Below are positions 39,657 through 56,722 of a stretch of 64,000 nucleotides of DNA, piece after piece. Source of the DNA: Pseudomonadota bacterium (GTDB taxonomy: Bacteria; SZUA-182; DTGQ01); the NCBI GenBank assembly GCA_030625085.1, contig DAOURK010000006.1, forward strand, positions 4,061 through 68,060, given 5' to 3'. Numbering within the stretch: the stretch's first letter is position 1; every line of letters starts with the position of its first letter. Below the pieces are notes generated by a model, which saw only the letters and a list, made by a program, of their open reading frames with translations, was not told where the DNA came from and did no database searches. The position numbers were made by a program, and so were the translations under genes.

Positions 39657-40040
39657 ATGACCGGAAATAGGTATTTTAATAAAGAGCATTTATGGGTTAA
39701 GGTAGACGGGAATGAGGTGACGATTGGACTTAGCGACCATGCCCAGCAAGAACTAGGAGATATTTTATTGGTGGAGCCTTCCGGATTGGACACAGAAATA
39801 GAACAATCGGCTTCTTTTGGTCAGGTCGAATCTGCCAAGGCTGTGTCGGATTTGATATCACCTGTGAGTGGTACTGTTATTGAAGTTAATGAATCATTAG
39901 AGGATGAACCTGAGTTGATTAATGAAGATCCTTATGAAAAGGGATGGATTATCAAATTAGATTTGAAGGATGTCAAGGAATTGGATAATTTAATGGGCGA
40001 AGATGAATATACACGATACCTTCAAGAAGAACTGGATTAA
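39657..40040 (+). CDS. gcvH: Glycine cleavage H-protein-like lipoyl carrier
   Basis: Lipoyl-lysine region SAKAVSDLISPVSGTV and GcvH fold-typical sequence. Confidence 0.8.
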   Translation: MTGNRYFNKEHLWVKVDGNEVTIGLSDHAQQELGDILLVEPSGLDTEIEQSASFGQVESAKAVSDLISPVSGTVIEVNESLEDEPELINEDPYEKGWIIKLDLKDVKELDNLMGEDEYTRYLQEELD

Positions 40041-40042
40041 TA

Positions 40043-40705
40043 ATGATTATTAGTCAACAAAAACCCTTTGAAGAAATTTTGACCATTCTTGGTGAAAAGA
40101 AAAGGGTTTTTCTTATAGGCTGTAGTTTATGCGCCACCCTTTGCCAGAGCGGCGGGGAGGAGCAGGTTATAGAAATGAAGGAGCGCCTTATTGGTGAGGG
40201 TAAGGAGGTTTCCGGGCATGTCGTTATCGAGGCGGTTTGTCATATCTTGAACAGTAAAAAAGAATTAGCCGCTCATAAGGCTGCATTAAAAGAAACCGAT
40301 GCTGTTTTAGTAATGGCTTGTGGGGCAGGCGTGCAAACAGTAACCGAACTAAAGAAAATTCCTGTTATGGCGGCATTGGACACGCTTTTTTTAGGTAATG
40401 TGAAACGCTTTGGCCAATTTGAAGAGCGATGTTCTTTATGTGGTGAATGCATATTAAATAAAACAGGTGGAATTTGTCCGGTGACAACTTGTTCTAAGGG
40501 ATTATTGAATGGTCCTTGTGGGGGAATGCATGATGGTAAATGTGAAATAGATCCGGAGCGTGATTGTGCCTGGGTTAAAATTTACGACCGTTTGGAAGAA
40601 TTGGGTCAACTGGAAACCTTTGAAGAAATTTTTGCACTCAAGGATTATTCAAAAGGAATTAAACCAAAGGCGCTGATATTGGAAAGAGGAAAGAAAGTAC
40701 TATGA
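40043..40705 (+). CDS. metV: Methylene-THF reductase small subunit MetV (zinc-ribbon/FeS)
   Basis: Cys-rich C-terminal half (CSLCGECIL...CP...CGGMHDGKC) resembling MetV of acetogens, immediately upstream of metF. Confidence 0.7.
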   Translation: MIISQQKPFEEILTILGEKKRVFLIGCSLCATLCQSGGEEQVIEMKERLIGEGKEVSGHVVIEAVCHILNSKKELAAHKAALKETDAVLVMACGAGVQTVTELKKIPVMAALDTLFLGNVKRFGQFEERCSLCGECILNKTGGICPVTTCSKGLLNGPCGGMHDGKCEIDPERDCAWVKIYDRLEELGQLETFEEIFALKDYSKGIKPKALILERGKKVL

Positions 40706-41598
40706 ATTTTCAGCAAAGCTTGACCCAAAATCAGTTTACCATTACTACTGAAATTGGTCCGCCAAAGGGTACTGACACCTCGGAAATGCTGGCTCAGGCA
40801 AGTAAAATCAAAGACAGAGTACACGCTATGAATGTTACTGATAATCAAAGTTCCATTATGAGATTAGGTTCTTTGGCTGCTTGTCATTTACTGAAAGAAC
40901 AAGGTATTGATCCAATATATCAATTAACCTGTCGGGATAGGAATCGTCTGGCGCTACAATCCGATTTGTTGAGCGCCAGTGCTTTGGGTCTTAGGAATGT
41001 TCTTGCCTTGACAGGGGATCATCCCCAGGTAGGTGATCACCCTCAAGCCAAACCGGTTTTTGATGTGGATTCAACCCAGCTTTTACAAATCATCGGACGA
41101 CTCAATGAGGGAAGGGACCTTTCCACACAATTTATGAATAAACCCTTGACGGAGGGCACAGCCTTGAAGGGGAAAACAGACCTTTTTCCGGGGGCTGTAG
41201 TTTGCCCTGAGGCAAATCCCATAAAACCGCAATTATTGAGATTTTCCAAGAAAGTTGTCGCCGGGGCAAAATTTTTTCAAACTCAGGCTATCTATGATTT
41301 TGAAAAGTTTGAAAATTTTATGAAATATGCTAGGGACCTGGGCGCCAAGATTTTAGCCGGCATTCTTCTTTTGCGCTCTGCCGGTATGGCTAGATATCTT
41401 AATAAGAATGTTCCGGGAATAATGGTGCCGGACCATCTAATAAAGGAAATGGAATCCTCCGCTCATCCTCTGGAAACAGGGATCAAAATTGCTGCACGTC
41501 AGATCAGCCAATTAAAGGGCATATGTAACGGAGTGCATATTATGGCCATCGGACTGGAGGATAAAGTTTTGGATATTCTTGATGAAGCAGGAATTTAA
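40702..41598 (+). CDS. metF: 5,10-methylenetetrahydrofolate reductase
   Basis: MTHFR TIM-barrel motifs (TCRDRNR...LTGDHP). Confidence 0.85.
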   Translation: MNFQQSLTQNQFTITTEIGPPKGTDTSEMLAQASKIKDRVHAMNVTDNQSSIMRLGSLAACHLLKEQGIDPIYQLTCRDRNRLALQSDLLSASALGLRNVLALTGDHPQVGDHPQAKPVFDVDSTQLLQIIGRLNEGRDLSTQFMNKPLTEGTALKGKTDLFPGAVVCPEANPIKPQLLRFSKKVVAGAKFFQTQAIYDFEKFENFMKYARDLGAKILAGILLLRSAGMARYLNKNVPGIMVPDHLIKEMESSAHPLETGIKIAARQISQLKGICNGVHIMAIGLEDKVLDILDEAGI

Positions 41599-41757
41599 GC
41601 TCAAAAAGCAAGGGTTAGAAATAGATATTTAGATTTGTCAGCGCGGGAAGCGAGCTTTACTTAAAAAACAAGTAGACTTTGTGTTAAAAAAGAGTAAAAT
41701 TGGGTAATAAACCTAACCATGATATACTATTAGCTTCTCTTTAAGGAGGTTGAGAAC

Positions 41758-43032
41758 TTGAACGATCAGGATCAAGCCATTGTTATCGGTGGTGGGATAA
41801 CAGGGGTTACCTCGGCCCTTGCTTTAGCTGATAACGGATATAAGGTTTCTATTATTGAAAAAAGCGCCGGCATTGGTGGGCATGCCATGCAGTTTTGCTG
41901 TAAGGCTACTGATCAGTGTAACAGTTGTGGGGTTTGTCTGGCTAAAGATAAAATCATGAAAGCGGCATCTCATCCAGGCATCCATATTTTAACCAACACA
42001 GAGGTAATAGGAGTAGAAGGAGAAGAGCCTCATTTTCAGGTTGAGGTCTTAAAGACACCACGGTTCATTGATGAATATAAATGTATTGCTTGTTCATTGT
42101 GCTATCAAAATTGTCCCAAACCGGGAGAAGCCATTGACCGTCCTTATTTATATTCTGTGCCGAATGCTTTTTACATTAATAAAGAACACTGTTTATACTT
42201 CCAAAAAGGGGAAGAGTGTACTATTTGTGAAGAAAATTGTCCGGCCGGGGCTATCTTTTTTGATCAACAAGAAGAGCGCCATATATTAAAAGCCTCAGCT
42301 ATAATTGTAGCTACCGGGTTTGAAGTATATGATGCCAGAAAAAAAGGATATCTTGGCTATGGGCGTTTTCCGGAGGTGATTTCAGGGCTTGATCTTGAAC
42401 AAAGATTGTTGATGGGTGAAGATACGATAATTTCCAAATCTTCGCCGGGAGGAAAGCCCCGCGTAGCTTTTATTCAATGTGTCGGCTCTCGAGACCCTCA
42501 TATCAGCCATGACTATTGTTCCCGGGTCTGTTGTAAATATGCGGCGCGGATGGCGGCTAAACTGAAATCGAAATGTGATGAAATAGATCTGACCATTTTT
42601 TATATTGATCTTCAGAAAACGGAAAGAGATTTTTTAGCCTTGGTTGAAAGCTTAAAAGAAAATATTCGGTTGGTTAAGGGACTGCCGGTAAAAATCGAAA
42701 AAGCCGAGGATTCCGGAGTAACAATGCGGTATGAAAATATTGATCGAGGATGTATGGAGAGGGAGTCTTTTGATTTGGTTGTGTTATCAGTAGGAATCAG
42801 TCCCTCTGTCGAAAATCAGTCTTTAGCCGGATTGTTGGGTATAAATATTGACGCGAATGGATTTTTCGCTTCAGTCGATTTAATGGATTCTACCATTAGT
42901 TCTCGGAGAGGAATTTTTCTAGCTGGCACCTGCCAGGGGCCAAAGAATCTTATTGAATCTATTTCCCACGGTCAGGAGGCGGCTTTGAGAACACTTGCTT
43001 TAATGAAGGGGCTAGGTGTAAACAATGGATAA
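41758..43032 (+). CDS. hdrA: HdrA-like flavoprotein (FAD thioredoxin-reductase-like domain with inserted 2x[4Fe-4S] ferredoxin)
   Basis: GGGITG Rossmann motif, CIACSLCYQNCP and CTICEENCP cluster motifs, FIQCVGSRD...YCSRVCC. TTG start with AAGGAGG. Confidence 0.75.
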   Translation: MNDQDQAIVIGGGITGVTSALALADNGYKVSIIEKSAGIGGHAMQFCCKATDQCNSCGVCLAKDKIMKAASHPGIHILTNTEVIGVEGEEPHFQVEVLKTPRFIDEYKCIACSLCYQNCPKPGEAIDRPYLYSVPNAFYINKEHCLYFQKGEECTICEENCPAGAIFFDQQEERHILKASAIIVATGFEVYDARKKGYLGYGRFPEVISGLDLEQRLLMGEDTIISKSSPGGKPRVAFIQCVGSRDPHISHDYCSRVCCKYAARMAAKLKSKCDEIDLTIFYIDLQKTERDFLALVESLKENIRLVKGLPVKIEKAEDSGVTMRYENIDRGCMERESFDLVVLSVGISPSVENQSLAGLLGINIDANGFFASVDLMDSTISSRRGIFLAGTCQGPKNLIESISHGQEAALRTLALMKGLGVNNG

Positions 43033-44737
43033 TCAGGTGAAAATAGGGGTATTCTTCTGTGCGTGCGGCCATATTATGAATGACTATTTTGATATGAAGG
43101 CCTTGCTTGATTATGCCGGTAGAATTCCCGGGGTAACCTATGTTGATGAAAATCGGTTTTTATGTACGAGGAGTGGGTTTGATTGGCTGAAGACTAAGAT
43201 TGCCAACACAGGCTGTAATCGAGTGATTATTGTTGGTTGCTCACCACATCTCTATGAACAAAGCTTTATGAAAGTAGTGGAAGAAGCGGGCCTGAATAAA
43301 TATTTTTTGAGCATAGCCAATATTAGAGAGGGATGTGCCTGGGTGTGCCGGGAAAAGGAAAATCTTATGTCCCGGGCCAGACGGATTATAGCCGCAGCCG
43401 TCCAGCGAGTGAGCTTTGCTAAGCCGGTGGAAAAGGTTCGAAAAAATATAAATAGGTCGGCTTTAGTGATCGGAGCGGGGCTTACCGGTATTCAAACAGC
43501 CCTGGAATTGCAACGGTTAGGGATTAAGCCAATACTCATTGAGAAAAAAACCCAGGTAAGTCGAAAGAACCCCCCCTTCTTTATCCCCTGCATAGAGGGT
43601 ATCAATGAACAAGAGATGTTTTCTGCGAAGATTAAAGAGCTTCGGGATAGTAAAATAGAGCTTTTAACCTCTACAGAAGTGAAGGAAGTGAGAGGAAATG
43701 TTGGGTCATTTCAGGTTACCTTGGATACAATGGGGCAAGAAAAAGCGCTGGAAGTGGGCGCTGTTGTTGTCAGTACGGGGGACCAAAGACAGGCAGCAGA
43801 GAGGATACATAATTTGCCGAATTCCCGCCGGATTGTCAGTTTATCCCAATTACGCAATATGTTTGATTTTGAGAGAAGGACCTTGGAGCGGATGTTGGTT
43901 ACTCCGGATAAACGTACTAAATATGCCTGTTTTATTCTTGGGGATTCTGAAAGTTTTACTAAAACAAATACCATTATGGCCCTTAATGAAGCCATTTTTT
44001 TAAAGGAGCAATTCAAAGCGGAAATTGTGATTGCAGCAAAAGACATAACCGTTTCAGGAACAGAACTGGAGCCTCTTTATCGACAGGCCAGACAAAAGGG
44101 GGTTTTGTTTTATCGGTACTCGCAAGATTCATTGCCGGAAATCAGCCTTGAAAAAGGAGTGATTATCGTTCGCTTGCATGATCCGGCTTTAACGGTGAAC
44201 GATGAAGAGAAGGCCGGTTATAATATTGCTGTTTCAAGTGACCTTCTGATACTTGAGGATGAAATTTTTCCCCATGAAGGGACAGATCGCCTGAAGGATA
44301 TTCTTGATATTAATGTGAATCAATGGGGATTTTTTCAAGAAAAGAATATTCATCTGAAACCGAACCTTTCTAATAAAAAAGGGATTTTTCTGGCCGGTGC
44401 TTGTCATGGGGAAGAGGATATTTACGAAACCCTTAATGATATTTGTTCAGTATCAATGGGGGTTTATTCTTATTTGTCTCAAGAATTTTTGGAGTTAGAG
44501 AAAAAGATAGATATTAATACTGATAAGTGTGTGTTATGTTTGACGTGTTTTCGTTCCTGTCCACACAGGGCAATTGAGATAGGGGATGTAGCTTCGGGCC
44601 AGAAACGAGGTGCAATGGTTAATGTTGAGGCGTGCCAGGGGTGTGGTATTTGTGTTGGAGAATGTCCGGCCAAGGCTATTGAAATGGTAACGTATTCAGA
44701 TAACCAGATTTTTTCCGAATTAACCTTTGAGGGGTAA
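43025..44737 (+). CDS. hdrA: HdrA-like protein (HdrA N-terminal Cys domain + FAD domain + C-terminal 2x[4Fe-4S])
   Basis: IGVFFCACGHI...VGCSPH N-domain, GAGLTG Rossmann motif, C-terminal CVLCLTCFRSCP / CQGCGICVGECP. Overlaps the upstream ORF by 8 nt. Confidence 0.7.
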   Translation: MDNQVKIGVFFCACGHIMNDYFDMKALLDYAGRIPGVTYVDENRFLCTRSGFDWLKTKIANTGCNRVIIVGCSPHLYEQSFMKVVEEAGLNKYFLSIANIREGCAWVCREKENLMSRARRIIAAAVQRVSFAKPVEKVRKNINRSALVIGAGLTGIQTALELQRLGIKPILIEKKTQVSRKNPPFFIPCIEGINEQEMFSAKIKELRDSKIELLTSTEVKEVRGNVGSFQVTLDTMGQEKALEVGAVVVSTGDQRQAAERIHNLPNSRRIVSLSQLRNMFDFERRTLERMLVTPDKRTKYACFILGDSESFTKTNTIMALNEAIFLKEQFKAEIVIAAKDITVSGTELEPLYRQARQKGVLFYRYSQDSLPEISLEKGVIIVRLHDPALTVNDEEKAGYNIAVSSDLLILEDEIFPHEGTDRLKDILDINVNQWGFFQEKNIHLKPNLSNKKGIFLAGACHGEEDIYETLNDICSVSMGVYSYLSQEFLELEKKIDINTDKCVLCLTCFRSCPHRAIEIGDVASGQKRGAMVNVEACQGCGICVGECPAKAIEMVTYSDNQIFSELTFEG

Positions 44738-44741
44738 GAGA

Positions 44742-45155
44742 ATGGATTTTATGCCGGCCATAGTGGCTTTTTGTTGTGAAAATTCAGCTTTTCGGGCCGC
44801 AGATACAGCAGGGGCAAAACAGGAAGGATATCCTTCCAACATTAAGATCTGTCGGCTCCCTTGTTCTGGAAAACTAGAGATAAACTATATCTTAAGGGCT
44901 TTTGAAGAGGGCGCTGATGGAGTGTTTATTTTTGCCTGCCATCCGGACAGTTGTAAGTTTCTCAAAGGTAATGTGCGTGCCCAAAAAAGGGTTGAGCATA
45001 CCGGTGCTTTATTAGAAAAAATCGGCATTAAAAAAGAACGTTTGCGTTTTTTTTATTTGTCCGAATTAGAATGGACAAAATTTTTAGATTTAGTTCAGCA
45101 GGGTAATGAAAGCATTAAGGGCTTGGGGCCCTGTCCGACAAAGGTGAAAGTATGA
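44742..45155 (+). CDS. mvhD: MvhD-like (methyl-viologen-reducing hydrogenase delta subunit family) [2Fe-2S] protein
   Basis: IVAFCCENSA...RLPCSG...CHPDSC motifs. Confidence 0.8.
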   Translation: MDFMPAIVAFCCENSAFRAADTAGAKQEGYPSNIKICRLPCSGKLEINYILRAFEEGADGVFIFACHPDSCKFLKGNVRAQKRVEHTGALLEKIGIKKERLRFFYLSELEWTKFLDLVQQGNESIKGLGPCPTKVKV

Positions 45156-45820
45156 TTATTGCAGAACAAAAAGAAATATCAGAAATTATCAATATGGTTG
45201 GCGATCACCGGAAAATTTTGGTGATTGGGTGTGATACCTGTGTTACAGTCTGTTTGTCCGGAGGCGCTAAGGAAGTGGCCATTTTGGCTTCGGCCCTGCG
45301 CTTGGCTTTCCGAGTGCAGGGTAAGCAGGTGGAGGTTAATGAAACCACCATTGAGAGGCAGTGCGAGATAGAATTTGTGGATTCTTTGGAATCTATGGCA
45401 AAGGACAAAGACCTTTTGATTTCAATGGGTTGCGGGATAGGCGTTCAGACCATAGCCGAGCGTTTTTTTCATTTACCGGTGGTGCCTGCCCTGAACACAA
45501 AATTTTTAGGTCTTCCGGAAAAACAGGGTGTCTGGGTTGAGCGATGTCAGGCCTGTGGCCAATGTGTACTAGATAAAACCGGCGGCATTTGTCCGATTTC
45601 TCGATGCTCAAAAAGTTTGCTCAATGGTCCCTGCGGGGGCTCACAAAACGGTAAGTGTGAAATTAATGATGAAATTGATTGTGCTTGGCACCTGATCTAC
45701 GAACGGTTGAAAGCCCTGAATAGACTTGAATGTTTGGAGGAGATCATGCCTGTAAAAGATTGGTCTACCAGCCGTGACGGCGGACCACGGAAAATGATCA
45801 GGGAGGACATGTGTCTATGA
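45152..45820 (+). CDS. metV: MetV paralogue (second copy)
   Basis: Paralogous to 40043-40705; the C-terminal Cys-rich half is conserved (CQACGQCVL...CGGSQNGKC). Confidence 0.7.
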   Translation: MIIAEQKEISEIINMVGDHRKILVIGCDTCVTVCLSGGAKEVAILASALRLAFRVQGKQVEVNETTIERQCEIEFVDSLESMAKDKDLLISMGCGIGVQTIAERFFHLPVVPALNTKFLGLPEKQGVWVERCQACGQCVLDKTGGICPISRCSKSLLNGPCGGSQNGKCEINDEIDCAWHLIYERLKALNRLECLEEIMPVKDWSTSRDGGPRKMIREDMCL

Positions 45821-46894: not shown

Positions 46895-47392
46895 GTGTCG
46901 GAAGAAAAGAAAAATTCCCCAATTAATGTATCAGAACTGGATTCAAAATTTAAATATGAGGTTTCCGAACAACCGGGGGGTGAAAATCTAACGTTATGTT
47001 TTTCTTGTGGTATTTGTACGGCCGGCTGTCCGGTAACCGAGGTGGAAGGCGAATACAATCCCCGAAAATTGATTCGAATGATTTTATTAGGCATGAAGGA
47101 AGAAGTGCTTTCTTCCAATTTGATTTGGTTGTGCTCGCTCTGTTATACCTGCTATGCCCGGTGTCCCCAGAACGTAAAATTTACTGATATCATGGGTGTT
47201 TTGCGTGATATGGCGGTACGGGAAAAGTATGTTGATTCTTCCTTTGTTAAAAATATTGATGAAATTGATCGCCTGTCGCAGCAAATTCGCCATCAAATGG
47301 TACGAGCCATCTTCCCTCAAAAAAAAGAAAACAAATCCATCGATCAGAAAGAATTAGTAAAGATGGCCCTCAAGAATTTGGATAAGGAGTAA
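46895..47392 (+). CDS. hdrC: HdrC-like 2x[4Fe-4S] ferredoxin subunit
   Basis: CFSCGICTAGCP and CSLCYTCYARCP separated by about 35 residues. Confidence 0.7.
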   Translation: MSEEKKNSPINVSELDSKFKYEVSEQPGGENLTLCFSCGICTAGCPVTEVEGEYNPRKLIRMILLGMKEEVLSSNLIWLCSLCYTCYARCPQNVKFTDIMGVLRDMAVREKYVDSSFVKNIDEIDRLSQQIRHQMVRAIFPQKKENKSIDQKELVKMALKNLDKE

Positions 47393-47399
47393 AGGAATT

Positions 47400-50300
47400 A
47401 TGGCGGAGACTGAAGGTCAAAAGAAAATTGGCGCGGTAATGGTTGTTGGCGGAGGTGTTGCCGGTGTCCAATCTGCCCTGGATCTGGCTGATTCCGGATA
47501 CAAGGTTTATATAGTCGAAAGAGGTTTGAGTATTGGCGGGGTTATGGCCCAGTTAGATAAGACCTTTCCGACCAACGACTGTTCCATGTGTATTTTAGCT
47601 CCTAAATTGGTGGATACGGGTCGCCATCAAAATATTGAAATAATAACCAACACTGAAATTCAAAGTGTCGAGGGAGAGGCAGGAAATTTCCGTGTTCAAC
47701 TCCTCAAGCATCCGCGTTTCATTGATGAGACTAAGTGTAATGGGTGCGGTGATTGTGAAAAGGAGTGTCCGGTAGAGGTCCCCAATGAATTTGAACAGGG
47801 ACTGAGCATGCGCAAAGCCATTTATAAGCCCTTTGCCCAGGCCATCCCCAATAAATATTCGATTGACAAACGAGGTAAATCTCCCTGTAAAATTGCTTGC
47901 CCTTTGGGGCAGAACGCCCAAGGCTATATTGCTTTAATCAAGGAGAAAAAATATGCTGAGGCGTATAATCTGATCAAAAGAGATAATCCGATCCCCCTTG
48001 TTTGTGGAAGGATTTGCGCTCATCCTTGTGAAGAGGTTTGCAAAAGGGGAGAGGTTGACGAACCAATGTCTATTGCCGCCCTGAAACGCTTTATCGCTGA
48101 TTATGCCTATAAGCATGATTTTCATGTTGATCTGGAGGTGGCCGAAAAGCGGGAAGAGCGCGTAGCTATCATTGGTTCCGGACCGGCGGGATTAGTAGCT
48201 GCTCATGATCTGGCCCTGAAAGGCTACCAAGTAACCATATATGAAGCCCTGCCGGTAGCGGGAGGCATGTTGGCTGTTGGCATTCCTGATTATCGACTCC
48301 CGCACAATCTCTTACAGTATAAGATTGATCTTATCAAGTCCCTGGGAGTTGAGATTAAATTGAATACTCCCATTGATCCTCATTTTACCTGTGAAGATCT
48401 GAAGGCTGAAGGGTATAAGGCTATTTTACTGGCTACCGGGGCCCATAAGAGTATTAAATTAGGTATTGCCGGCGAGGGTTCAAAGGGGGTTATTCATTGC
48501 ACGGATTTTTTGCGAGAGGTAAATCTTGGCAAGAAGGTAGAGGTTGGAAAACGGGTAGCCGTTATCGGTGGTGGAAATACAGCCGTTGATGCGGCTAGAG
48601 TGGCTTTTCGGCTGGGCGCTGAAGAAATACATATCGTTTATCGTCGGACTCGTCTTGAGATGCCCGCTTTAGAGGATGAAATTGAAGAGGCCGAATTTGA
48701 GGGAGTTAAGATTTTATTTTTAACAGCCCCTGTACAGATTTTGGCTGAAAATGGGCGGGTGGCCGGATTGAAATGCGTGCGTATGGAGTTGGGCGAGCCG
48801 GATGATCGTGGCCGGCGAAGACCCATACCTATTGCCGATTCGGAATTTATCATCCCTATAGATACTGTTATCCCATCAGTGAGTCAGGCACCGGATCTTT
48901 CTTTTTTGCCCGGGGATACGGATTTAAAAATTGGGGCCCATGATACCCTTGACGTTGATCCAATTACCGGGGCCACCAACCAGGAAGGAATTTTTGCCTC
49001 CGGCGAAGTGGTGACCGGTCCGTGGATTGCTGTTCAGGCTATGATTTCCGGTCGAGAAGCCGCCATTTCCATTGATCGGTATCTCAACGATCAGGATATG
49101 CGAAAGGGAAGAGATACGAAAAAAGTTTTTGAAAAGGCGGAACCTCATAAAGAGCGATGGAATGTTGAAATTAAGCCGCGTGTCAGAATGCCGAGGCTTT
49201 CCTTGGAAGAGCGGAAGGGAAATTTTAAGGAAGTAGATTTAGGTTTAACTGAGGAAATGGCCTTAGAAGAAGCCAGACGATGTTTGAATTGTGGTATTTG
49301 CTCGGAATGTATGGAATGTGTAACTACCTGTAAGGCGGAAGCCATTAATCATGATATGAAAGAGCAAACCTTGGAGTTGGAAGTGGGTAGTGTTATTCTG
49401 GCTCCGGGGTATGAAGAATTTGATGCCAAGTTAAAGACCAATTTTGGCTATGGCCGATACCCCGATGTGGTTTCCAGTATTGAGTTTGAGCGTATCTTGA
49501 GCGCCTCCGGTCCCTTCAAAGGGCACATTATCCGTCCCTCGAATCATCAGGAACCCAAGAAAATTGCTTTTATTCAATGCGTTGGCTCCAGGGACACCTC
49601 CTGCGGTAATGATTATTGCTCTTCTGTATGCTGTATGTATTCCATCAAAGAAGCGGTGATTGCCAAGGAACATCTACGTTCCATTGAGCCCACCATCTTT
49701 TATAATGATATGCGGGCCTATGGGAAGGATTTTGATAAGTATGTAAATCGGGCGGAAAAGCAATATGGGGTGCGTTTTATTAAATCTCTTGTCTCCGAAG
49801 TAGAACAAGACCATGACAGCCAGGCCTTAGGTTTAAAATATCTTCAGGAAGATGGGCAATTGATCAGTGAACAATTTGATCTGGTCATTTTAGCTGTCGG
49901 GTTTGAGCCACCTAAAGATGTCCAGGAAATGGCCAAAAGATTACATGTTGATTTAAACAGATATGGTTTTTGCCGGACAGAGACCATGTCACCCTTAAGG
50001 ACTTCTCGAGCAGGTATATATGCGTGCGGGGCTTTTGTCAGCCCTAAGGACATTCCGGAAACTGTTATGCAGGCCAGCGGGGCAGCCAGCGAAGCCTCAG
50101 CTTTGTTGTCTTCGGCCCGAAATACGCTGATTACAGAAAGGACCTATCCGCCGGAAAGAGATGTCTCCGGGGATACTCCTCGGATCGGCGTTTTTGTTTG
50201 CCATTGCGGCATCAACATAGGCGGCTTTGTGAATGTTCCCGAGGTTAAAGATTATGCCTTAACGCTTCCTTTTGTAAAGTATGCTGCTGAGAATCTGTAT

Positions 50301-51839
50301 ACATGTTCTGAAGATACCCAGCAGAAAATGGTGGAGGTCATCAAGGAACATAATTTAAACCGGGTGATTGTTGCCTCCTGTTCTCCCAGGACCCATGAGC
50401 CCCTTTTTCAGGAGACCATTCGTGAAGCGGGTCTTAATCCCTATCTTTTTGAGATGGCCAATATTAGAGATCAATGTTCCTGGGTGCATATGTTTGAAAA
50501 GGAAAAGGCCACGGAAAAGGCCAAGGACCTGGTTCGGATGGCTGTGTATAAAGCGGCCCTGATCGAGCCGCTCCAACGGCTTTCTTTGCCGGTAAATCCG
50601 GCCGGTTTGGTTATTGGGGGAGGCGTAGCCGGCATGATGAGCGCCTTATCCTTAGCTGAACAGGGATTCGATGTCCATCTGGTAGAGAAAGAGTCGCTCC
50701 TTGGTGGGGTGGCCAGAAAGATTTATTATACTCCCGGGGAAAGGGATTTCCCCTCTATCTTGAAATGGATGATTAATCGAATTCAACAACATCCCTTAAT
50801 TCATCTTTATCTGGATTCCGAGGTGGTTGAGGTCTCGGGATTTGTTGGTACTTTTGCCTCGATTATTCGCTCTAAAAAGCGGGAAATTCCCATTGAACAT
50901 GGGGCGATTATAGTAGCTACCGGTGGAGAGGAATCTGTCCCCCAGGAATATTTATATGGACAAAACCCAAAAGTGGTTACTGCACATGATTTAGAATATT
51001 TGATTGCCAAAGAAGATCCCGAGCTTATGAATGCTCAAAACGTGGTTATGATTCAATGCGTCGGTTCTCGGGAAGAAGGGCGGATGTATTGTAGTCGAGT
51101 GTGCTGTATCCAAAGCATAAAGAACGCCCTGCGCTTAAAAGAGATAAATCCTTTGGTTAACATTTATATCCTTTATAGAGATATTCGTACCTATGGATTT
51201 TGGGAAGAATACTATCAGCAGGCCCGTTCAAAGGGAGTTGTTTTTATTCGCTATGATCTAGAGGAAAAGCCCCTTGTCTCCAGCAATGGGTCCGGCACGA
51301 TAGTTATTCAAACGAAAGACCCGATTTTGAATCAACAGGTACTTTTGTCGGCTGATTTTTTGACCTTGGCGCCGGCTATTTTGGCCCCGGAAAGCAATAA
51401 AGATCTGGCCCGGATGTTAAAGGTGCCGGTCAATGAAGATAGATTTTTCCTAGAGGCTCACATGAAATTGCGGCCTGTGGATTTTGCCACTGATGGTATT
51501 TTCGTTTGTGGTCTAGCCCATGCCCCAAAATCGATAGATGAAAGCATTGCTCAGGCTAAGGCAGCCGCAGCCAGGGCCTCTCAAGTTTTAAGTAAGTCTG
51601 CCATTCAGACCCAGGGGCAGACGGCTAAGGTTGATAAAAACCGGTGTGCAGGATGTGGTATTTGTGAGCTGGTTTGTGCCTATAAGGCCATTGAATTGGA
51701 CCTTGAAGAAAAATGCGCCAAGGTAAACGAGGCCCTTTGTAAAGGATGCGGGGCCTGTGCCGCTACCTGTCGTTCAGGGGCGTTAGATGTCAAAGGATTT
51801 ACGAACCAACAGATATTTGAGATGATGGAGGCCTTATGA
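47400..51839 (+). CDS. hdrA: Giant HdrA-family fusion flavoprotein (HdrA FAD/Fd segment, inserted GltD/NfnB-like NAD(P)H-FAD-2x[4Fe-4S] module, rest of HdrA, then a second complete HdrA unit)
   Basis: 1479 aa with three GxGxxG Rossmann motifs (GGGVAG, GSGPAG, GGGVAG), GltD-like CGRICAHPCEEVC, two copies of the IQCVGSR...YCSxVCC inserted-ferredoxin motif, an internal RIGVFVCHCGINI...ASCSPR HdrA N-domain, and C-terminal CAGCGICELVC / CKGCGACAATC. Confidence 0.75.
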   Translation: MAETEGQKKIGAVMVVGGGVAGVQSALDLADSGYKVYIVERGLSIGGVMAQLDKTFPTNDCSMCILAPKLVDTGRHQNIEIITNTEIQSVEGEAGNFRVQLLKHPRFIDETKCNGCGDCEKECPVEVPNEFEQGLSMRKAIYKPFAQAIPNKYSIDKRGKSPCKIACPLGQNAQGYIALIKEKKYAEAYNLIKRDNPIPLVCGRICAHPCEEVCKRGEVDEPMSIAALKRFIADYAYKHDFHVDLEVAEKREERVAIIGSGPAGLVAAHDLALKGYQVTIYEALPVAGGMLAVGIPDYRLPHNLLQYKIDLIKSLGVEIKLNTPIDPHFTCEDLKAEGYKAILLATGAHKSIKLGIAGEGSKGVIHCTDFLREVNLGKKVEVGKRVAVIGGGNTAVDAARVAFRLGAEEIHIVYRRTRLEMPALEDEIEEAEFEGVKILFLTAPVQILAENGRVAGLKCVRMELGEPDDRGRRRPIPIADSEFIIPIDTVIPSVSQAPDLSFLPGDTDLKIGAHDTLDVDPITGATNQEGIFASGEVVTGPWIAVQAMISGREAAISIDRYLNDQDMRKGRDTKKVFEKAEPHKERWNVEIKPRVRMPRLSLEERKGNFKEVDLGLTEEMALEEARRCLNCGICSECMECVTTCKAEAINHDMKEQTLELEVGSVILAPGYEEFDAKLKTNFGYGRYPDVVSSIEFERILSASGPFKGHIIRPSNHQEPKKIAFIQCVGSRDTSCGNDYCSSVCCMYSIKEAVIAKEHLRSIEPTIFYNDMRAYGKDFDKYVNRAEKQYGVRFIKSLVSEVEQDHDSQALGLKYLQEDGQLISEQFDLVILAVGFEPPKDVQEMAKRLHVDLNRYGFCRTETMSPLRTSRAGIYACGAFVSPKDIPETVMQASGAASEASALLSSARNTLITERTYPPERDVSGDTPRIGVFVCHCGINIGGFVNVPEVKDYALTLPFVKYAAENLYTCSEDTQQKMVEVIKEHNLNRVIVASCSPRTHEPLFQETIREAGLNPYLFEMANIRDQCSWVHMFEKEKATEKAKDLVRMAVYKAALIEPLQRLSLPVNPAGLVIGGGVAGMMSALSLAEQGFDVHLVEKESLLGGVARKIYYTPGERDFPSILKWMINRIQQHPLIHLYLDSEVVEVSGFVGTFASIIRSKKREIPIEHGAIIVATGGEESVPQEYLYGQNPKVVTAHDLEYLIAKEDPELMNAQNVVMIQCVGSREEGRMYCSRVCCIQSIKNALRLKEINPLVNIYILYRDIRTYGFWEEYYQQARSKGVVFIRYDLEEKPLVSSNGSGTIVIQTKDPILNQQVLLSADFLTLAPAILAPESNKDLARMLKVPVNEDRFFLEAHMKLRPVDFATDGIFVCGLAHAPKSIDESIAQAKAAAARASQVLSKSAIQTQGQTAKVDKNRCAGCGICELVCAYKAIELDLEEKCAKVNEALCKGCGACAATCRSGALDVKGFTNQQIFEMMEAL

Positions 51840-52324
51840 GTGTAGAGAAAAAAAAGAGTCAACAGCAATCCTGGGAACCGAAAATTGTGGCCTTCCTTTG
51901 TAATTGGTGCAGCTATGCGGGAGCTGACCTGGCCGGCATTAGTAGAATTCAATATCCTCCTAATGTCCGTGTTATTCGGGTCCCGTGCTCCGGCAGGATC
52001 AATCCGGTTTTTATTTTGAAGGCATTGCAGAGTGGAACTGACGCTGTTTTAGTATCAGGCTGTCATCCGGGAGATTGTCATTACGTAAGCGGCAATTATT
52101 ATGCTCGAAGAAAATTTGAGATTTTTGACCATTTGCTGGATTTTGTGGGGTTGGAAAAGGGAAGGGTCTTTTTTTCCTGGGTTTCGGCTGCAGAGGGAGA
52201 AAATTTCGGCCATTTAATTAAGCATGTTGTGGATGAGGTAAAGAAACTGGGACCTGCTCATAAATTAGTGAAAACCATTGAAGGGCCAGTAGCCAATTGT
52301 CAGCAAACAATGGTCGAAGGGTAA
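51836..52324 (+). CDS. mvhD: MvhD-like / FlxD-like protein
   Basis: IVAFLCNWCSYAG...VPCSG...CHPGDC motifs. ATGA start/stop overlap with the upstream gene. Confidence 0.8.
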   Translation: MSVEKKKSQQQSWEPKIVAFLCNWCSYAGADLAGISRIQYPPNVRVIRVPCSGRINPVFILKALQSGTDAVLVSGCHPGDCHYVSGNYYARRKFEIFDHLLDFVGLEKGRVFFSWVSAAEGENFGHLIKHVVDEVKKLGPAHKLVKTIEGPVANCQQTMVEG

Positions 52325-52377
52325 GTAAATAATCTGAAAGCCAATTTTAAAATTGATAAATCATTATGGAGTAAATT

Positions 52378-53337
52378 ATGTGGTCAAAGGAAATAACTCA
52401 GAAGATCCGAGCCACTGCGGAATCTTTGCTACTCGAAGGAAAGGTTGACCTCATTATCGGCTATGAGGCAGGCAGCACTCCTTTACGAACAGCTCCTTCT
52501 TTTGTGCGATCAGCGGAGCAGGCTTCTTTGTTGGTTTGGAACCCTTTTTGTGAGAATAACCTCAGTGTTTATTTAGAAGGGAGAAAAGAGAAGGTAGGTC
52601 TGATGGCTAAAGGCTGTGATGCCAGAGCCGCAGTGGTTGCTTTACAGGAAAAACGTATTGATCGAGACCGATTGCTAATTATTGGTCTTCCGTGCTCCGG
52701 AGTTGTTGATCGACAAAAATTAGCCGCCTCGGTAAATATTGATGCTGTTAAGGCTTTTTCGGTTGATAAGGATTCACTCGTGCTTCAGACAGAAGAAGAA
52801 GTACGGCTACCTTTAGAGGATGTTTTGCATGCTTCCTGTAAGACTTGTTCGCGAAGAAACGCTCCGGTGTCGGATATTTTTATTGGTGAAAAAAGCTCTG
52901 AGCCTCAGGTCAAGGACGAGTTTGCAGAGGTAAAATCTTTCGAGGGTTTGGGCACTCAGGAGCGGTGGCGCTATTTTCGTGAATTGGCCCAAAAATGTAT
53001 TCGCTGTTACGCTTGCCGAAATGCCTGTCCTTTATGTTATTGTCAGGAATGTATTGTTGACCAGACACAACCACAGTGGTTCGGGAAGACTGCTGCTGAA
53101 GAAGATACATTAATTTATCATATTATACGTGCTTACCATTGTGCGGGAAGGTGTATTGATTGCGGTGCCTGCTCTAGGGCCTGTCCTATGGGTATTGATT
53201 TAAGACTTTTAAACAAAAAACTTCAAAAGGACGTGCAGGAGCTTTATCACTATATTCCCGGATTAAATCCGGATGAAGCGCCAGCCTTTGGTACGTTTAA
53301 GCTTGATGATCCGCAGGATTGTATCACGGAAAAATAA
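52378..53337 (+). CDS. Iron-sulfur oxidoreductase subunit (HydB/AsrA-like; FlxC-like)
   Basis: AKGCDARAA motif and a C-terminal 2x[4Fe-4S] (CIRCYACRNACP...CIDCGACSRACP). Confidence 0.55.
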   Translation: MWSKEITQKIRATAESLLLEGKVDLIIGYEAGSTPLRTAPSFVRSAEQASLLVWNPFCENNLSVYLEGRKEKVGLMAKGCDARAAVVALQEKRIDRDRLLIIGLPCSGVVDRQKLAASVNIDAVKAFSVDKDSLVLQTEEEVRLPLEDVLHASCKTCSRRNAPVSDIFIGEKSSEPQVKDEFAEVKSFEGLGTQERWRYFRELAQKCIRCYACRNACPLCYCQECIVDQTQPQWFGKTAAEEDTLIYHIIRAYHCAGRCIDCGACSRACPMGIDLRLLNKKLQKDVQELYHYIPGLNPDEAPAFGTFKLDDPQDCITEK

Positions 53338-53385
53338 AGAATAATAGGGATTTGAAGAAGGAATCATAAGAATAGGAATTAACAA

Positions 53386-54396
53386 ATGGATACAGGGATT
53401 ATAAAGAAGGAAAATATCAAAGGTGTTATCGAGAGCTTGATGCAAATGGGAAAGGTGGTGGCCCCGACTCGGCAAGATGATATGACTGTGTTTTCGGCTT
53501 TACCCTCCAGTGAGGCCTTAGATCTTAATTATACCAATAGCAAATTAAGCCCTAAGGATTATTTTTTTCCTCAAACCGAGGTGCTTTTTTGTTACGAAAA
53601 AGAAAATAATCAAATTCATCCACCGCTCATTGAAGACAAGCCCGCTTGCCTGGTGGGAGTTCGTCCCTGCGATGCTAAGGCTATAACTTTATTGGATTGT
53701 ATTTTCAATGATCCGCAGTATAAGGATGTCTATTATCTCAACAAGCGCAAAAACACTGTGGTGATTGGTCTTGCCTGTACGAATCCCCAAAGCACCTGTT
53801 TTTGTACCTCCACGGGAGGAGGCCCATTGGATACTACCGGTATGGATATGCTTTGGCAAGATCTTGGTGATAGATATCTGATCAAAGCAGTAACTCCTCA
53901 GGGAAAAGAATTGGCCTCTAAGCTTTTCGGTATTGATAAGGCACCGGAAAAGGACCTTTCTTACGCCAAGAAGCAGGGCGAGAAGGTCCTGTCGATGATT
54001 CCACCGGCCTTTGAGGCAGAAAAGATTTCTGAGAAATTACGTTCCTCATTTGAGGATTCTGTCTGGGAAACAATTCATGAAAAATGTTTAGGGTGCGCGG
54101 CCTGTACCTTTGTTTGCCCTACTTGTCATTGCTTCGATATACAGGATGAAAACAGCCGGGACCGGGGGAGACGAGTGAAGTTGTGGGACTCTTGTATGTT
54201 TCCCCTCTTTACACTTCATACATCAGGACATAATCCCAGGTTATCGGGTAAAGAACGTATGCGGCAAAGAATTATGCACAAATTTAATTATTTTAAGGTT
54301 AATAACGGACACGTTGCCTGTGTCGGCTGCGGAAGATGTATCAGGGAATGTCCGGTCAATATGGATATTAGACAGATAGTATCGGCGTTTAGTTGA
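53386..54396 (+). CDS. Iron-sulfur oxidoreductase subunit (sulfhydrogenase beta / AsrA-like; FlxB-like)
   Basis: VGVRPCDAKA motif, CLGCAACTFVCPTCHC and CVGCGRCIRECP clusters. Confidence 0.6.
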   Translation: MDTGIIKKENIKGVIESLMQMGKVVAPTRQDDMTVFSALPSSEALDLNYTNSKLSPKDYFFPQTEVLFCYEKENNQIHPPLIEDKPACLVGVRPCDAKAITLLDCIFNDPQYKDVYYLNKRKNTVVIGLACTNPQSTCFCTSTGGGPLDTTGMDMLWQDLGDRYLIKAVTPQGKELASKLFGIDKAPEKDLSYAKKQGEKVLSMIPPAFEAEKISEKLRSSFEDSVWETIHEKCLGCAACTFVCPTCHCFDIQDENSRDRGRRVKLWDSCMFPLFTLHTSGHNPRLSGKERMRQRIMHKFNYFKVNNGHVACVGCGRCIRECPVNMDIRQIVSAFS

Positions 54397-54407
54397 GGAA
54401 AGAGAAA

Positions 54408-55247
54408 ATGGAGAATCCCTATTTACCAAAAAATGTAAAGATAGAAAAAATTATTGATGAGACAGCGGGAAAGGATATTAAAAGTTTTGTCTTATCCTTT
54501 CTGAATCCTCAAGATTGCGAAGCTTTTTCGTATCATCCAGGTCAGTTTGCCGAAATTTCCATTGCCGGGGCCGGAGAAATTCCTATTGGTATTGCTTCAT
54601 CTCCTTCCGAGGGAGTAGAAGTGAAATTTACGGTAAAAAAAATGGGGGTGGTAACGAAAGACCTTCATAATTCTTCCGCCGGGCGGATTATTGGTTTGCG
54701 AGGACCTTACGGAAATGGTTTTCCCATGGAAGAGCTAAAGGGTAAAAATATTGTCATTGTAGGGGGAGGGTTTGCTTTTACTACCTTGCGATCTTTGGCT
54801 GTGTATTTGATGGATGATTCCCGCAGGAAGGATTACGGGGATATTACTATTATCTGTGGGGCCAGGACCCCGGGTGATCTTATTTATCGTCAAGAAGTGG
54901 AAACTTGGGCTTCCCAGCCTGATTTAAAGGTCCAGGTGACCGTTGATAAGGGAAATGCGGATTGGAGTGGGAGAGAGGGTTTTATTCCGCCTGTGGTCAA
55001 GGAAGTGGCTCCTTCTGCGGATAATGCCATAGCCTTGGTTTGCGGCCCTCCGATAATGATTAAACTTACCATTCCTATTCTTTTTGATCTGGGCTTTGCG
55101 CCCAACAAAATTTTGAATTCACTAGAGATGAGAATGAAATGTGGATTTGGTAAATGTGGCCGCTGTAACATCGGAAATAAATATGTTTGCAAAGATGGGC
55201 CGGTTTTTACCTTTGAGGAACTACAAAAACTCCCTCAAGAATATTAA
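54408..55247 (+). CDS. FAD/NAD(P)-binding oxidoreductase with C-terminal [2Fe-2S] (HydG/AsrB/PyrK-like; FlxA-like)
   Basis: Ferredoxin-NADP reductase-type fold motifs and C-terminal CGFGKCGRC. An alternative TTG start at 54393 overlaps the upstream stop. Confidence 0.65.
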   Translation: MENPYLPKNVKIEKIIDETAGKDIKSFVLSFLNPQDCEAFSYHPGQFAEISIAGAGEIPIGIASSPSEGVEVKFTVKKMGVVTKDLHNSSAGRIIGLRGPYGNGFPMEELKGKNIVIVGGGFAFTTLRSLAVYLMDDSRRKDYGDITIICGARTPGDLIYRQEVETWASQPDLKVQVTVDKGNADWSGREGFIPPVVKEVAPSADNAIALVCGPPIMIKLTIPILFDLGFAPNKILNSLEMRMKCGFGKCGRCNIGNKYVCKDGPVFTFEELQKLPQEY

Positions 55248-55321
55248 TACAGTTATTGGTCCCCTATGCTTTACCGAAATGTTTCTCTTTCTGACGTCCA
55301 TATTGAAGAGGCAAAAGAATT

Positions 55322-56722
55322 ATGAGCGATTATGACATTGGCATTATCGGGGCCGGGCCGGGTGGTTATGTGGCAGCGATCAGAGCATCTCAACTGGGGG
55401 CTCGGGTTTGTTTAATTGAACGGTCAGAGGTAGGCGGGACATGCTTGAATCTTGGCTGTATTCCGACCAAAGCCCTGGTTGGCTGTGTAAGTGCGCTCTC
55501 CAATATAAAATCGGCAGAAGAATTCGGCATTCAAATCAAAGATATCTCCTTTGATTTTAAAAAGATGATGGAGCGCAAAGACAGAATTGTTGAACGCTTG
55601 ACTAAAGGGATTAGACAACTACTGAAAAGCTATCAAATTGATCTGATGTGGGGCAAAGCCGGGATTCGAACACCGAATATTATCGAAGTTACGACTCGTG
55701 ATAATGGCAAGATGGAGAAGGTGAGCGTGGAAAAGATTATTATTGCTACCGGCTCCAGACCTGCCAAAATACCGGTTTTTGAAATCGACGGAAAGAGAGC
55801 AATTACCAGCGATGAAGCCTTGTCCTTGGAGGAGGTCCCTGAACGGCTCCTGATTGTGGGTGGAGGTGTGGTTGGTTGCGAATTTGCCTGTATTTTTAAT
55901 GCCTTGGGGAGCAAAGTTACCATTGTCGAGGTCATGCCGGACCTGATTCAGTTGCAGGATAAGCAGATTAGCCGGCAATTGCGGGTACTGTTAAAAAAAG
56001 CAGGCATTACCATTTTAACCAATGAAACCATTTGTCAGGTAAGAAAAGGCTCTGAGGAAATAGAAGTCGAATTGGAGTCTGAAAAAACGCTCCAGGCGGA
56101 CAAAATGTTGGTTTCCATTGGGCGAGTATTTAATTCAGATAATCTCGGGTTGGCGGAGGTTGGGGTGAAAACTTCCAAGGGAATGATTTTAGTAGACAAT
56201 AGAATGCGGACCTCTGTGGAAGGCATTTACGCCATCGGTGATGTGGCCAGTCATCTTCGATTGGCTTATATAGCTTCGGCACAAGGGATTGTGGCGGCTA
56301 CGAATTGTCTGGGCAAGCGAAAAACTATGGATTATGGAACTGTGCCTACCTGTATTTTTACTATGCCGGAGATTGCCTCTGTAGGCCTGACGGAAGCGCA
56401 GGCCAGAGAAGAAGGATATGATGTAGGGGTCGGCAAATTTCCTTTTTCAGCCAGTGGAAAAGCCTTGGCTATGGGAGAAACCGATAGTTTTCTCAAAATG
56501 ATTGCCGACAATGATGAGGAGACTGTGCTGGGGGTACATATCATAGGCCCCCACGCCACAGATATTATTCATGAAGCTGCTTTGGCCATTCGGATGGGTG
56601 TCAGGGTCCGGCAATTGGCTGATACGCTACATGCTCACCCGACCTTATCCGAGGTATTGGTTGAGGCGGCTGAAGACGTCAAGGGAACATCAATTCATCT
56701 TCCAAAGAAAAAAAAGGATTAG
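55322..56722 (+). CDS. lpdA: Dihydrolipoyl dehydrogenase
   Basis: GAGPGGY...GGTCLNLGCIPTK redox-active disulfide, NAD Rossmann motif, C-terminal dimerisation HAHPTLSE. Confidence 0.9.
   Translation: MSDYDIGIIGAGPGGYVAAIRASQLGARVCLIERSEVGGTCLNLGCIPTKALVGCVSALSNIKSAEEFGIQIKDISFDFKKMMERKDRIVERLTKGIRQLLKSYQIDLMWGKAGIRTPNIIEVTTRDNGKMEKVSVEKIIIATGSRPAKIPVFEIDGKRAITSDEALSLEEVPERLLIVGGGVVGCEFACIFNALGSKVTIVEVMPDLIQLQDKQISRQLRVLLKKAGITILTNETICQVRKGSEEIEVELESEKTLQADKMLVSIGRVFNSDNLGLAEVGVKTSKGMILVDNRMRTSVEGIYAIGDVASHLRLAYIASAQGIVAATNCLGKRKTMDYGTVPTCIFTMPEIASVGLTEAQAREEGYDVGVGKFPFSASGKALAMGETDSFLKMIADNDEETVLGVHIIGPHATDIIHEAALAIRMGVRVRQLADTLHAHPTLSEVLVEAAEDVKGTSIHLPKKKKD

Follow-up and report, generated by a model that had tools for sequence, protein, structure and literature searches.

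A lipoyl-carrier gene coupled to a stand-alone MetVF-type methylene-tetrahydrofolate reductase in the Wood-Ljungdahl cluster of an uncultured bacterium

Why should a Wood-Ljungdahl gene cluster carry the lipoyl-carrier H protein and the dihydrolipoyl dehydrogenase (L protein) that belong to the glycine cleavage system (GCS), when the genes for its T and P proteins are not part of the cluster? The question is raised by a 64-kb stretch of a contig from the metagenome-assembled genome (MAG) of an uncultured bacterium (hereafter the window, i.e. the whole 64,000 nucleotides analysed), in which gcvH directly precedes metV1 and metF1, a pair of methylene-tetrahydrofolate (methylene-THF) reductase (MTHFR) genes, and lpdA stands among the acs genes further downstream. 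As a preliminary description of the locus had stated for clostridia, the Wood-Ljungdahl clusters of acetogens are documented to carry H and L genes but not those for T and P (PMC4600107, PMC5039349, PMC9040625, PMC7132306); even in the many acetogens whose genomes lack T and P, the H and L of the cluster are conserved, and their expression is very high (PMC7132306, PMC9040625). The idea that GcvH is a partner of MetVF has likewise been published for Firmicute acetogens, and the present locus is a further variant of this known puzzle. The answer that we favour, although we give it somewhat less than an even chance, is that GcvH and LpdA form an NAD(H):lipoyl-protein redox couple serving the C1 pathway, the likeliest client being the stand-alone reductase MetV1F1. 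Four genes carry the argument:

gcvH, 39657..40040, plus strand: lipoyl-carrier H protein, a variant in which Leu12 stands in place of Glu-14 and Ile67 in place of Tyr-70 (E. coli numbering)
metV1, 40043..40705, plus strand: iron-sulfur subunit of a stand-alone MetVF-type MTHFR (Pfam DUF5981, 5.8e-37)
metF1, 40702..41598, plus strand: flavin subunit of MTHFR (Pfam MTHFR, PF02219, 3.3e-43)
lpdA, 55322..56722, plus strand: dihydrolipoyl dehydrogenase (profile match and catalytic motifs)

Both gcvH and lpdA are confirmed as real, intact genes. The open reading frame (ORF) of gcvH encodes 127 amino acids and starts with ATG, 7 nt downstream of the ribosome-binding site AAGGAGG; its product matches Pfam GCV_H (PF01597) at 6.5e-43 and scores 135.1 bits on TIGR00527 (curated cut-off 115.85) and 149.9 bits on NF002270 (cut-off 117). 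It aligns to solved H proteins without gaps at the key positions, and the lipoylation motif GQVESAKAVSD is intact. Alignment, the check that the preliminary description had proposed for the lipoyl lysine, identifies the carrier residue as Lys61 and finds it retained in all 38 GcvHs of the clade described below. LpdA (466 amino acids) reaches 565.7 bits on TIGR01350, where the cut-off is 408.8, and matches the Pfam domains Pyr_redox_2 and Pyr_redox_dim, with the FAD/NAD Rossmann folds. Its alignment with solved dihydrolipoamide dehydrogenases runs from end to end; the solved E3 1EBD (371 bits) aligns at both the redox disulfide GGTCLNLGCIPTK, whose CxxxxC motif reads CLNLGC, and the C-terminal His-Glu dyad in HAHPTLSE.

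The two genes are tightly packed against different neighbours. Between the gcvH stop, whose last base is 40040, and the metV1 ATG at 40043 there is a 2-nt spacer, and the start of metF1 overlaps the end of metV1 by 4 nt; a spacer of 6 nt separates the end of lpdA (56722) from the start of cooC2 (56729). These coordinates agree with the initial observation that gcvH is directly upstream of metV-metF and lpdA directly upstream of cooC-acsE. The GcvH of the window belongs to a well-delimited clade, with 36 database proteins at 61-96% identity before the values fall to 57% or less, and the closest assemblies are MAGs labelled 'bacterium' or 'Deltaproteobacteria bacterium'. The order gcvH-metV1-metF1 is kept in all seven loci with a readable neighbourhood (the window, L057, which is identical to L080-82 and L091, and L083, L089, L090, L092 and L170), the usual arrangement being folE-folD-gcvH-metV1-metF1. 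Moreover, the 2-nt stop/start junction is the same in the window, L057/L091 and L170, in lineages whose MetV1 is just 63-68% identical to that of the window; in the other loci the spacer measures 36 to about 240 nt. Because the first adjacency recurs in six further loci and that of lpdA and cooC in another MAG (L084), neither can be put down to chance. The folD gene stands between folE and gcvH in the relatives L080 (9095-9943), L083, L089 and L170; the window lacks it at the corresponding gap (39613-39657) and across the whole 64 kb.

The reductase to which gcvH is coupled is one of two in the cluster. A DUF5981 gene adjoining a PF02219 gene identifies metV1 and metF1 as a MetVF-type MTHFR, and their products are 44% (MetV) and 40% (MetF) identical to MetV2 and MetF2, which sit in hdrA-mvhD and hdrC-hdrL-mvhD-NAD(P)H modules across many phyla. 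For metV1F1, gcvH is the sole coupled neighbour, and there are no adjacent electron-input subunits. The nearest outgroups of MetV1 (55-60% identity) are encoded by stand-alone folD-metV-metF or metV-metF genes, one of them on a contig that carries a protein labelled Geobacteraceae by NCBI.

In its gene content the locus is of the acetogen type, with gcvH and lpdA among acs and met genes and no gcvT or gcvP in the cluster. A tblastn search with references for gcvT, gcvP/PA/PB, lplA, lipA and folD from three operons returned no match across the window, and annotation with Pfam and NCBIfam, which covered nearly all ORFs of at least 100 amino acids not overlapping a longer annotated ORF, added neither a GCS gene nor one for lipoate attachment. 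The earlier statement that gcvT and gcvP do not lie nearby thus stands for the 64 kb, and gcvT, gcvP and lipoate-attachment genes were likewise not found in the flanks of related loci.

The H protein itself differs from its operon-encoded relatives in one feature. The cavity that protects the aminomethyl-lipoate arm holds it by means of Glu-12 and Glu-14 (PMC7733448). Among the residues of this aminomethyl-locking cavity (Glu-12, His-13, Glu-14, Ser-67, Asp-68 and Tyr-70), Glu-14 and Tyr-70 are replaced. The five best-matching solved H proteins read H-E-W, as does E. coli, where the window reads H-L-W, and the position is Leu in 38 of 38 clade GcvHs; that of Tyr-70 is Ile, Val or Thr in the clade and Ile in the window. 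Since the pea H protein, with Asn, is also without Tyr-70, only Glu-14 carries weight as a marker. It is kept in every one of the 37 homologues encoded beside gcvT/gcvP, in 82 of the 84 next-nearest GcvH homologues and in 122 of 150 diverse representatives of the family. Judged by sequence, its loss is a simple marker that separates the cluster-linked H proteins of this clade from operon-encoded ones, and it hints at a redox role of the cluster GcvH. The GcvHs without Glu-14 fall into three clades, and should be counted as about three independent events, not 52.

The other lineages without Glu-14 are encoded beside redox partners and away from gcvT/P. Pairs of gcvH and lpdA without gcvT/P were found at 11 loci, with Thr, Val or Ala at the site, and in two of the four loci examined an AhpC/TSA redoxin gene lies directly upstream of the pair (L093, 7830-10388; L104, 9297-11757). 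The GcvHs of these two rows have Val (L093) and Thr (L104) at the Glu-14 site, and both have lost Asp-68; the row resembles a lipoyl-dependent peroxidase-type system. In MAGs labelled Syntrophaceae, Syntrophorhabdus and Thermodesulfobacteriota, the order is gcvH-hdrC-hdrB(CCG)-hdrL, and the GcvHs linked to hdrCB have Phe or Tyr at the Glu-14 site, Ser-67 and Asp-68 being altered as well. A GcvH variant with the motif ESGKWVGR adjoins hdrC-hdrB(CCG)-hdrL-mvhD in L005, L010, L011, L015, L063 and L075 (each time at about 8.0-10.0 kb); its gene is divergent in L005, whereas in the other five it shares the strand and lies directly upstream, which suggests that this lipoyl protein may work with a true HdrBC-type module. 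In L029 (7697-9019) and L072 (7242-8570), a response-regulator receiver (REC), a GcvH-like and an HdrC-like domain are joined in single proteins encoded directly upstream of hdrL; the lipoyl lysine is absent from these fusions.

How, then, could the pair in the window act? In the scheme that we favour, LpdA would exchange electrons between NADH/NAD+ and the dihydrolipoyl/lipoyl arm that GcvH carries on Lys61, an activity to be expected from the motifs and the lysine described above, and the reduced arm would pass two electrons to a client, most likely MetV1F1, which is predicted to be co-translated with GcvH. This client is suggested because the gene coupling is conserved and because this paralogue is without another electron-input subunit. 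Methylene-THF would thereby be reduced to methyl-THF by an NADH-linked route without bifurcation, running parallel to MetV2F2, the enzyme connected to the flavin-based HdrA/MvhD/HdrL module. The potential of NAD is -320 mV and that of the methylene-THF/methyl-THF couple about -200 mV. For the lipoyl group, about -290 to -325 mV is quoted (PMC8760232). With these potentials, electron flow from NADH over LpdA, GcvH and MetV1F1 to methylene-THF would be downhill in the reductive direction. It also speaks for this scheme that the cluster holds just H and L, the half of the GCS components that makes up a redox couple. Further points in its favour are the redox partners encoded beside the two other GcvH lineages without Glu-14, the precedent of LbpA as a GcvH-like redox partner of the sHdr enzymes (PMC6067878), and the conservation of H and L in acetogens without T and P.

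Several observations weigh against it. The weakest link is the step from the dihydrolipoyl arm to the iron-sulfur clusters of MetV, which would be without precedent. MetV1 shares the 13 cysteines of MetV2, and a comparison of the two for a thiol/disulfide motif specific to MetV1 yielded none extra. In the MetVF that is closest among the outgroups, that of Geobacteraceae folD-metV-metF, no gcvH adjoins the genes. The GcvH is otherwise canonical, passing the equivalog cut-off, being 53-57% identical to operon-encoded H proteins and retaining, throughout the clade, Glu-12, His-13, Lys-64, Ser-67 and Asp-68. Alanine mutants of E. coli H protein at Glu-12, Glu-14, Ser-67 and Tyr-70 show wild-type glycine synthesis when P, T and L are added (bioRxiv 10.1101/2021.03.28.437365); as they work in vitro, the loss of Glu-14 is better read as a changed selective constraint than as a loss of GCS competence. 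A scheme with GcvH/LpdA and MetVF was considered highly unlikely by Oppinger et al., who had modelled it (PMC8760232), and the H and L encoded in the cluster of Clostridium drakei serve glycine synthase (PMC7132306).

The distribution of lpdA adds to these difficulties. The LpdA clade comprises five sequences at identities of at least 79%, the next dropping to 55%, and lpdA is restricted to the closest sub-lineage. The order shyC-like gene, lpdA, cooC, acsE recurs in another MAG (L084); in L057 the shyC-like gene adjoins cooC directly and lpdA is missing from the site, as it is in L003, and no remnant of it was detected at this site in either of these sister loci. Since gcvH is present clade-wide and lpdA in the sub-lineage only, H and L must have entered the cluster in separate events, H having come earlier and being more widespread. 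A bolder version of the favoured scheme, in which GcvHs without Glu-14 would in general be dedicated dithiol/disulfide carriers and, together with LpdA, the physiological electron donor of stand-alone MetVF, and would form a recurring shuttle for MetVF, HdrBC-HdrL and peroxiredoxin clients in anaerobes, is in our opinion rather unlikely.

The strongest competitor is a split glycine cleavage or glycine synthase system, in which H and L would be quite ordinary, and gcvT and gcvP would lie elsewhere in the genome. The placement of gcvH and lpdA among folE, folD (in the relatives) and metVF would then follow from the shared intermediate 5,10-methylene-THF, and would tie the Wood-Ljungdahl pathway's methyl branch to glycine/serine synthesis or to glycine breakdown. 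Both proteins exceed the curated equivalog cut-offs, and their nearest outgroups are encoded inside gcvT-gcvH-gcvP(A/B)(-lipA-lplA-lpdA) operons: the H proteins at 53-57% identity in L087, L088 and about 45 metagenome loci, and the 55%-identical LpdA as the last gene of a gcvT-gcvH-gcvPA-gcvPB-?-lipA-lplA-lpdA operon (L086). The lipoyl lysine and most cavity residues are retained, the cavity mutants remain active in the full system in vitro, and folD stands directly upstream of gcvH in the relatives just as it does of gcvT-gcvH-gcvP in L088. C. drakei provides an example, since it pairs its cluster-encoded gcvH and lpdA with a separate gcvT-gcvPA-gcvPB cluster (PMC7132306). In Tepidanaerobacter acetatoxydans, lpdA1-gcvH1 lies directly upstream of metF (PMC13564433); there the two genes adjoin each other and are annotated as glycine synthase, with gcvT/gcvP elsewhere, whereas in the window they are 15 kb apart and joined the cluster at different evolutionary depths. 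The explanation is weakened by the absence of a T or P gene from the 64 kb and from the related loci, and by the clade-wide replacement of a residue that all 37 operon-encoded homologues keep. Furthermore, the pattern of H and L only is also seen in acetogens without any T and P (PMC7132306), and the conserved coupling of gcvH to metV1 is left unexplained. We regard a split system as possible, although on balance unlikely.

Alternatively, the pair could be a general NADH-dependent dithiol reductant for oxygen- and disulfide-sensitive enzymes of the pathway, with LpdA working near CooC and the CO dehydrogenase/acetyl-CoA synthase and not with MTHFR. Variants of this idea are a peroxiredoxin-type antioxidant relay of Lpd and a lipoyl protein, and an enzyme formerly suggested for Moorella, the 'CO dehydrogenase disulfide reductase'. 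It would account for the coupling of lpdA to cooC2-acsE in the window and in L084, and lpdA is also found upstream of cooC in a clostridial gene list (PMC4600107), in a paper in which Poehlein et al. raised the disulfide-reductase idea. The AhpC/TSA-gcvH-lpdA triads of other loci, whose GcvHs are likewise without Glu-14, point in the same direction. Yet no peroxiredoxin or thioredoxin-like gene was found by Pfam in the cluster, gcvH is coupled to metV1 at a distance of 15 kb from lpdA, and lpdA is dispensable at this site in the sister lineages, all of which makes this explanation improbable. As a precedent for such relays, Bryk et al. (2002) reportedly described a mycobacterial NADH peroxidase made up of Lpd, DlaT, AhpD and AhpC. 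The likeness lies in the use of Lpd and a lipoyl protein as an NADH-driven dithiol relay to a client other than a dehydrogenase; in mycobacteria, however, the carrier is an E2 subunit and the client a peroxiredoxin, to which the only link here is the AhpC/TSA-gcvH-lpdA triads on other contigs.

The remaining genes of the cluster, among them the Hdr-like genes between metF1 and lpdA, are the following:

iclR, 37197-37991, plus strand: IclR regulator, upstream of cooC1
cooC1, 38257..39048, plus strand: CooC/AcsF-type nickel-insertion ATPase at the head of the cluster (Pfam CbiA/AAA_31)
folE, 39035..39613, plus strand: GTP cyclohydrolase I of folate biosynthesis (Pfam GTP_cyclohydroI, 1.1e-65)
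hdrA-like pair, 41758-43032 and 43025-44737, plus strand: split HdrA-like flavoprotein in two overlapping genes (NCBIfam HdrA2, partial, 327 and 293 bits)
mvhD1, 44727..45155, plus strand: MvhD (Pfam FlpD, 5.3e-41)
metV2 and metF2, 45152-45820 and 45811-46758, plus strand: MTHFR pair within the Hdr-like module (Pfam)
hdrC-like, 46895..47392, plus strand: HdrC-like di-cluster ferredoxin (TIGR03290, 94.5 bits, under the family cut-off; Pfam Fer4_8)
hdrL, 47400..51839, plus strand: 1479 amino acids, HdrA fused to a GltD/NfnB-like NAD(P)H flavoprotein (Pfam/NCBIfam scans)
mvhD2, 51836-52324, plus strand: MvhD (profile scans)
frhB-like, 52378-53337, plus strand: FrhB-like protein (profile scans)
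shyB-like, 53386-54396, plus strand: ShyB/AsrA-like protein (profile scans)
shyC-like, 54393-55247, plus strand: ShyC/AsrB-like NAD(P)H module (profile scans)
cooC2, 56729..57502, plus strand: second CooC (Pfam CbiA/AAA_31)
acsE, 57656-58441, plus strand: AcsE (NCBIfam/Pfam)
acsD, 58501-59502, plus strand: AcsD (NCBIfam/Pfam)
acsC, 59559-60905, plus strand: AcsC (NCBIfam/Pfam)
cooS/acsA, 61089-63032, plus strand: CooS/AcsA (NCBIfam/Pfam)
putative acsB, 63188..64000, plus strand: 5' part of an ORF that follows cooS, reads MSKIIASAAIRGAHKIV... and runs off the window

The whole cluster is encoded by the plus strand, and its genes overlap or are separated by short gaps. The series iclR, cooC1, folE, gcvH, metV1, metF1 is followed by a gap of 159 nt; the split hdrA-like pair, mvhD1, metV2 and metF2 then all overlap, and after a further gap of 136 nt come the hdrC-like gene, hdrL, mvhD2, the frhB-like, ShyB/AsrA-like and ShyC/AsrB-like genes, lpdA, cooC2, acsE, acsD, acsC and cooS. 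The last ORF is presumably acsB, given its place after cooS and its N-terminal sequence. The order iclR-cooC-folE is kept in L080, L083 and L170. Of the two HdrA-like genes, the first matches central HdrA (profile positions about 140-560) and the second matches the N-terminal part of HdrA and, at its C-terminus, a ferredoxin domain; the halves thus stand in swapped order, a permuted split that is kept in relatives.

Desulfobacterium autotrophicum is the organism for which the HdrL type was originally defined (PMC2702500). Positions 45152-55247 of the window form a block, metV-metF-hdrC-like-hdrL(1479 aa)-mvhD-frhB-like-ShyB/AsrA-like-ShyC/AsrB-like, that is kept in dozens of MAG loci (L004-L079), labelled among others as Chloroflexota, Bacillota, Thermodesulfobacteriota, Planctomycetota and Asgard archaea. 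To all appearances it encodes an uncharacterised but widespread MTHFR/Hdr-like complex that is linked to NAD(P)H and lacks HdrB. In the relative with the most similar HdrL (L001, 81%), a gene for a multihaem cytochrome c of 1178 amino acids (415-3951) lies upstream of the hdrA-like genes in place of gcvH-metV1-metF1, and no acs genes follow the shyC-like gene; the cluster has thus been rearranged between close relatives.

The preliminary description had named the Hdr-like complex as an alternative to MTHFR as the redox partner of the lipoyl protein. Of the two, MTHFR gains indirectly from the conserved coupling, the stand-alone nature of MetV1F1 and the loss of Glu-14. For the Hdr-like complex to be the partner, the disulfide of lipoyl-GcvH would have to be a substrate of HdrA/HdrL, like CoM-S-S-CoB or like LbpA in sHdr, and it would be in keeping with this that gcvH stands before hdrC-hdrB-hdrL-mvhD in the Syntrophaceae-, Syntrophorhabdus- and Thermodesulfobacteriota-labelled MAGs and that a GcvH-like domain is fused to HdrC in L029 and L072. 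However, HdrB/CCG proteins are the only known disulfide-reducing site of Hdr enzymes, and none was found among the ORFs of the window; the idea of an HdrB in the window was dropped after Pfam and NCBIfam scans had both remained without a match. Moreover, most hdrL-metVF clusters of other phyla are without gcvH, and the lipoyl potential would probably be too low for the high-potential acceptor in NAD(P)H-driven bifurcation. A precedent is LbpA, a lipoyl protein of the GcvH family that the Hdr-like complexes of sulfur oxidisers need as their partner (PMC6067878): its gene, too, stands with Hdr-like genes, and its function is not in glycine cleavage. The sHdr systems, however, have HdrB1/B2 CCG subunits, dedicated lipoate ligases and sulfur transferases, and the window ORFs scanned contain neither an HdrB/CCG protein nor LplA/LipB, DsrE or TusA domains. 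We consider a role as Hdr substrate quite improbable.

Least probable is a housekeeping role of GcvH, either as the obligatory lipoyl relay for other lipoyl proteins as in Bacillus subtilis, for which it may be counted that organisms using GcvH in this way encode gcvH away from gcvT/P, or as the aminomethyl-lipoyl donor for maturation of the [FeFe]-hydrogenase H-cluster: lipM/lipL, hydE/F/G and hydrogenase genes were not found in the window, the aminomethyl form needed for maturation fits poorly with the loss of Glu-14, and neither role accounts for the coupling to metV. The aminomethyl-lipoyl-H protein is reported to be required for H-cluster assembly (PMC12752695, PMC12501116).

As to the setting of the cluster, a promoter and terminator scan of 37000-56999 gave sites no more frequent than in shuffled sequence and is therefore silent on transcription units. 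The window also contains a chromosomal replication-origin region (8348-21435), in which the minus strand carries gyrA, gyrB and dnaA, and the plus strand rnpA, yidC, mnmE, parA and parB; the GC skew switches sign near 14 kb, and the Wood-Ljungdahl cluster begins about 23 kb from dnaA. The periplasmic domain of YidC marks the organism as a diderm. Three tRNA genes lie on the minus strand (2592-2665, 6729-6818 and 6928-7010; Rfam), and the 64 kb hold no further match to Rfam at or above the gathering score of a family, whether to a riboswitch or to any other RNA. An ORF of 387 amino acids (29589-30752), flanked by a gene for a DUF4412 protein and a nicotinate/quinolinate phosphoribosyltransferase-like gene, has no Pfam match at E <= 1e-5.

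Compared with the known acetogen clusters, the locus combines familiar and unfamiliar traits. The Wood-Ljungdahl clusters of C. ljungdahlii, C. autoethanogenum, C. aceticum and C. difficile, like that of the window, encode H and L only, with lpdA directly upstream of cooC and acs genes; the host in our case, however, is an uncultured diderm lineage and not a Firmicute. From the clostridial order metV-metF-lpdA-cooC-acsD-acsC-acsE-acsB-gcvH (PMC4600107), the window shares only the adjacency of lpdA and cooC: gcvH stands before metV1 at the start of the methyl branch instead of after acsB, and 13.7 kb of hdr-like genes lie between metF1 and lpdA. The window further possesses two metVF pairs and HdrA/HdrL/MvhD modules, whereas C. 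ljungdahlii has neither RnfC2 nor Hdr (PMC8760232). The model of Oppinger et al. (PMC8760232) resembles the scheme that we favour in that LpdA reduces GcvH with NADH and GcvH feeds MetVF, but theirs is bifurcating and was rejected by its authors, whereas ours would be a non-bifurcating relay to a second, stand-alone MetVF. With the canonical gcvT-gcvH-gcvP and lpd, the window shares the fold, the lipoyl-lysine motif, the membership by hidden Markov models and the identities of 53-57% (H) and 55% (L); it differs from them in having no T or P nearby, in the clade-wide change of Glu-14 to Leu and in the replacement of Tyr-70.

Our analysis demonstrates that the association of H and L with the Wood-Ljungdahl cluster is not confined to Firmicutes. 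The locus offers a clean arrangement, in which gcvH is coupled to a stand-alone metVF next to a second, Hdr-wired metVF, and it adds the separate recruitment of H and L as well as a clade-wide loss of Glu-14 that is common to other redox-linked GcvH lineages. At stake are the electron donor of MetVF-type MTHFR and the role of the highly expressed GcvH and LpdA in Wood-Ljungdahl clusters, and both questions bear on the energy balance of the Wood-Ljungdahl pathway.

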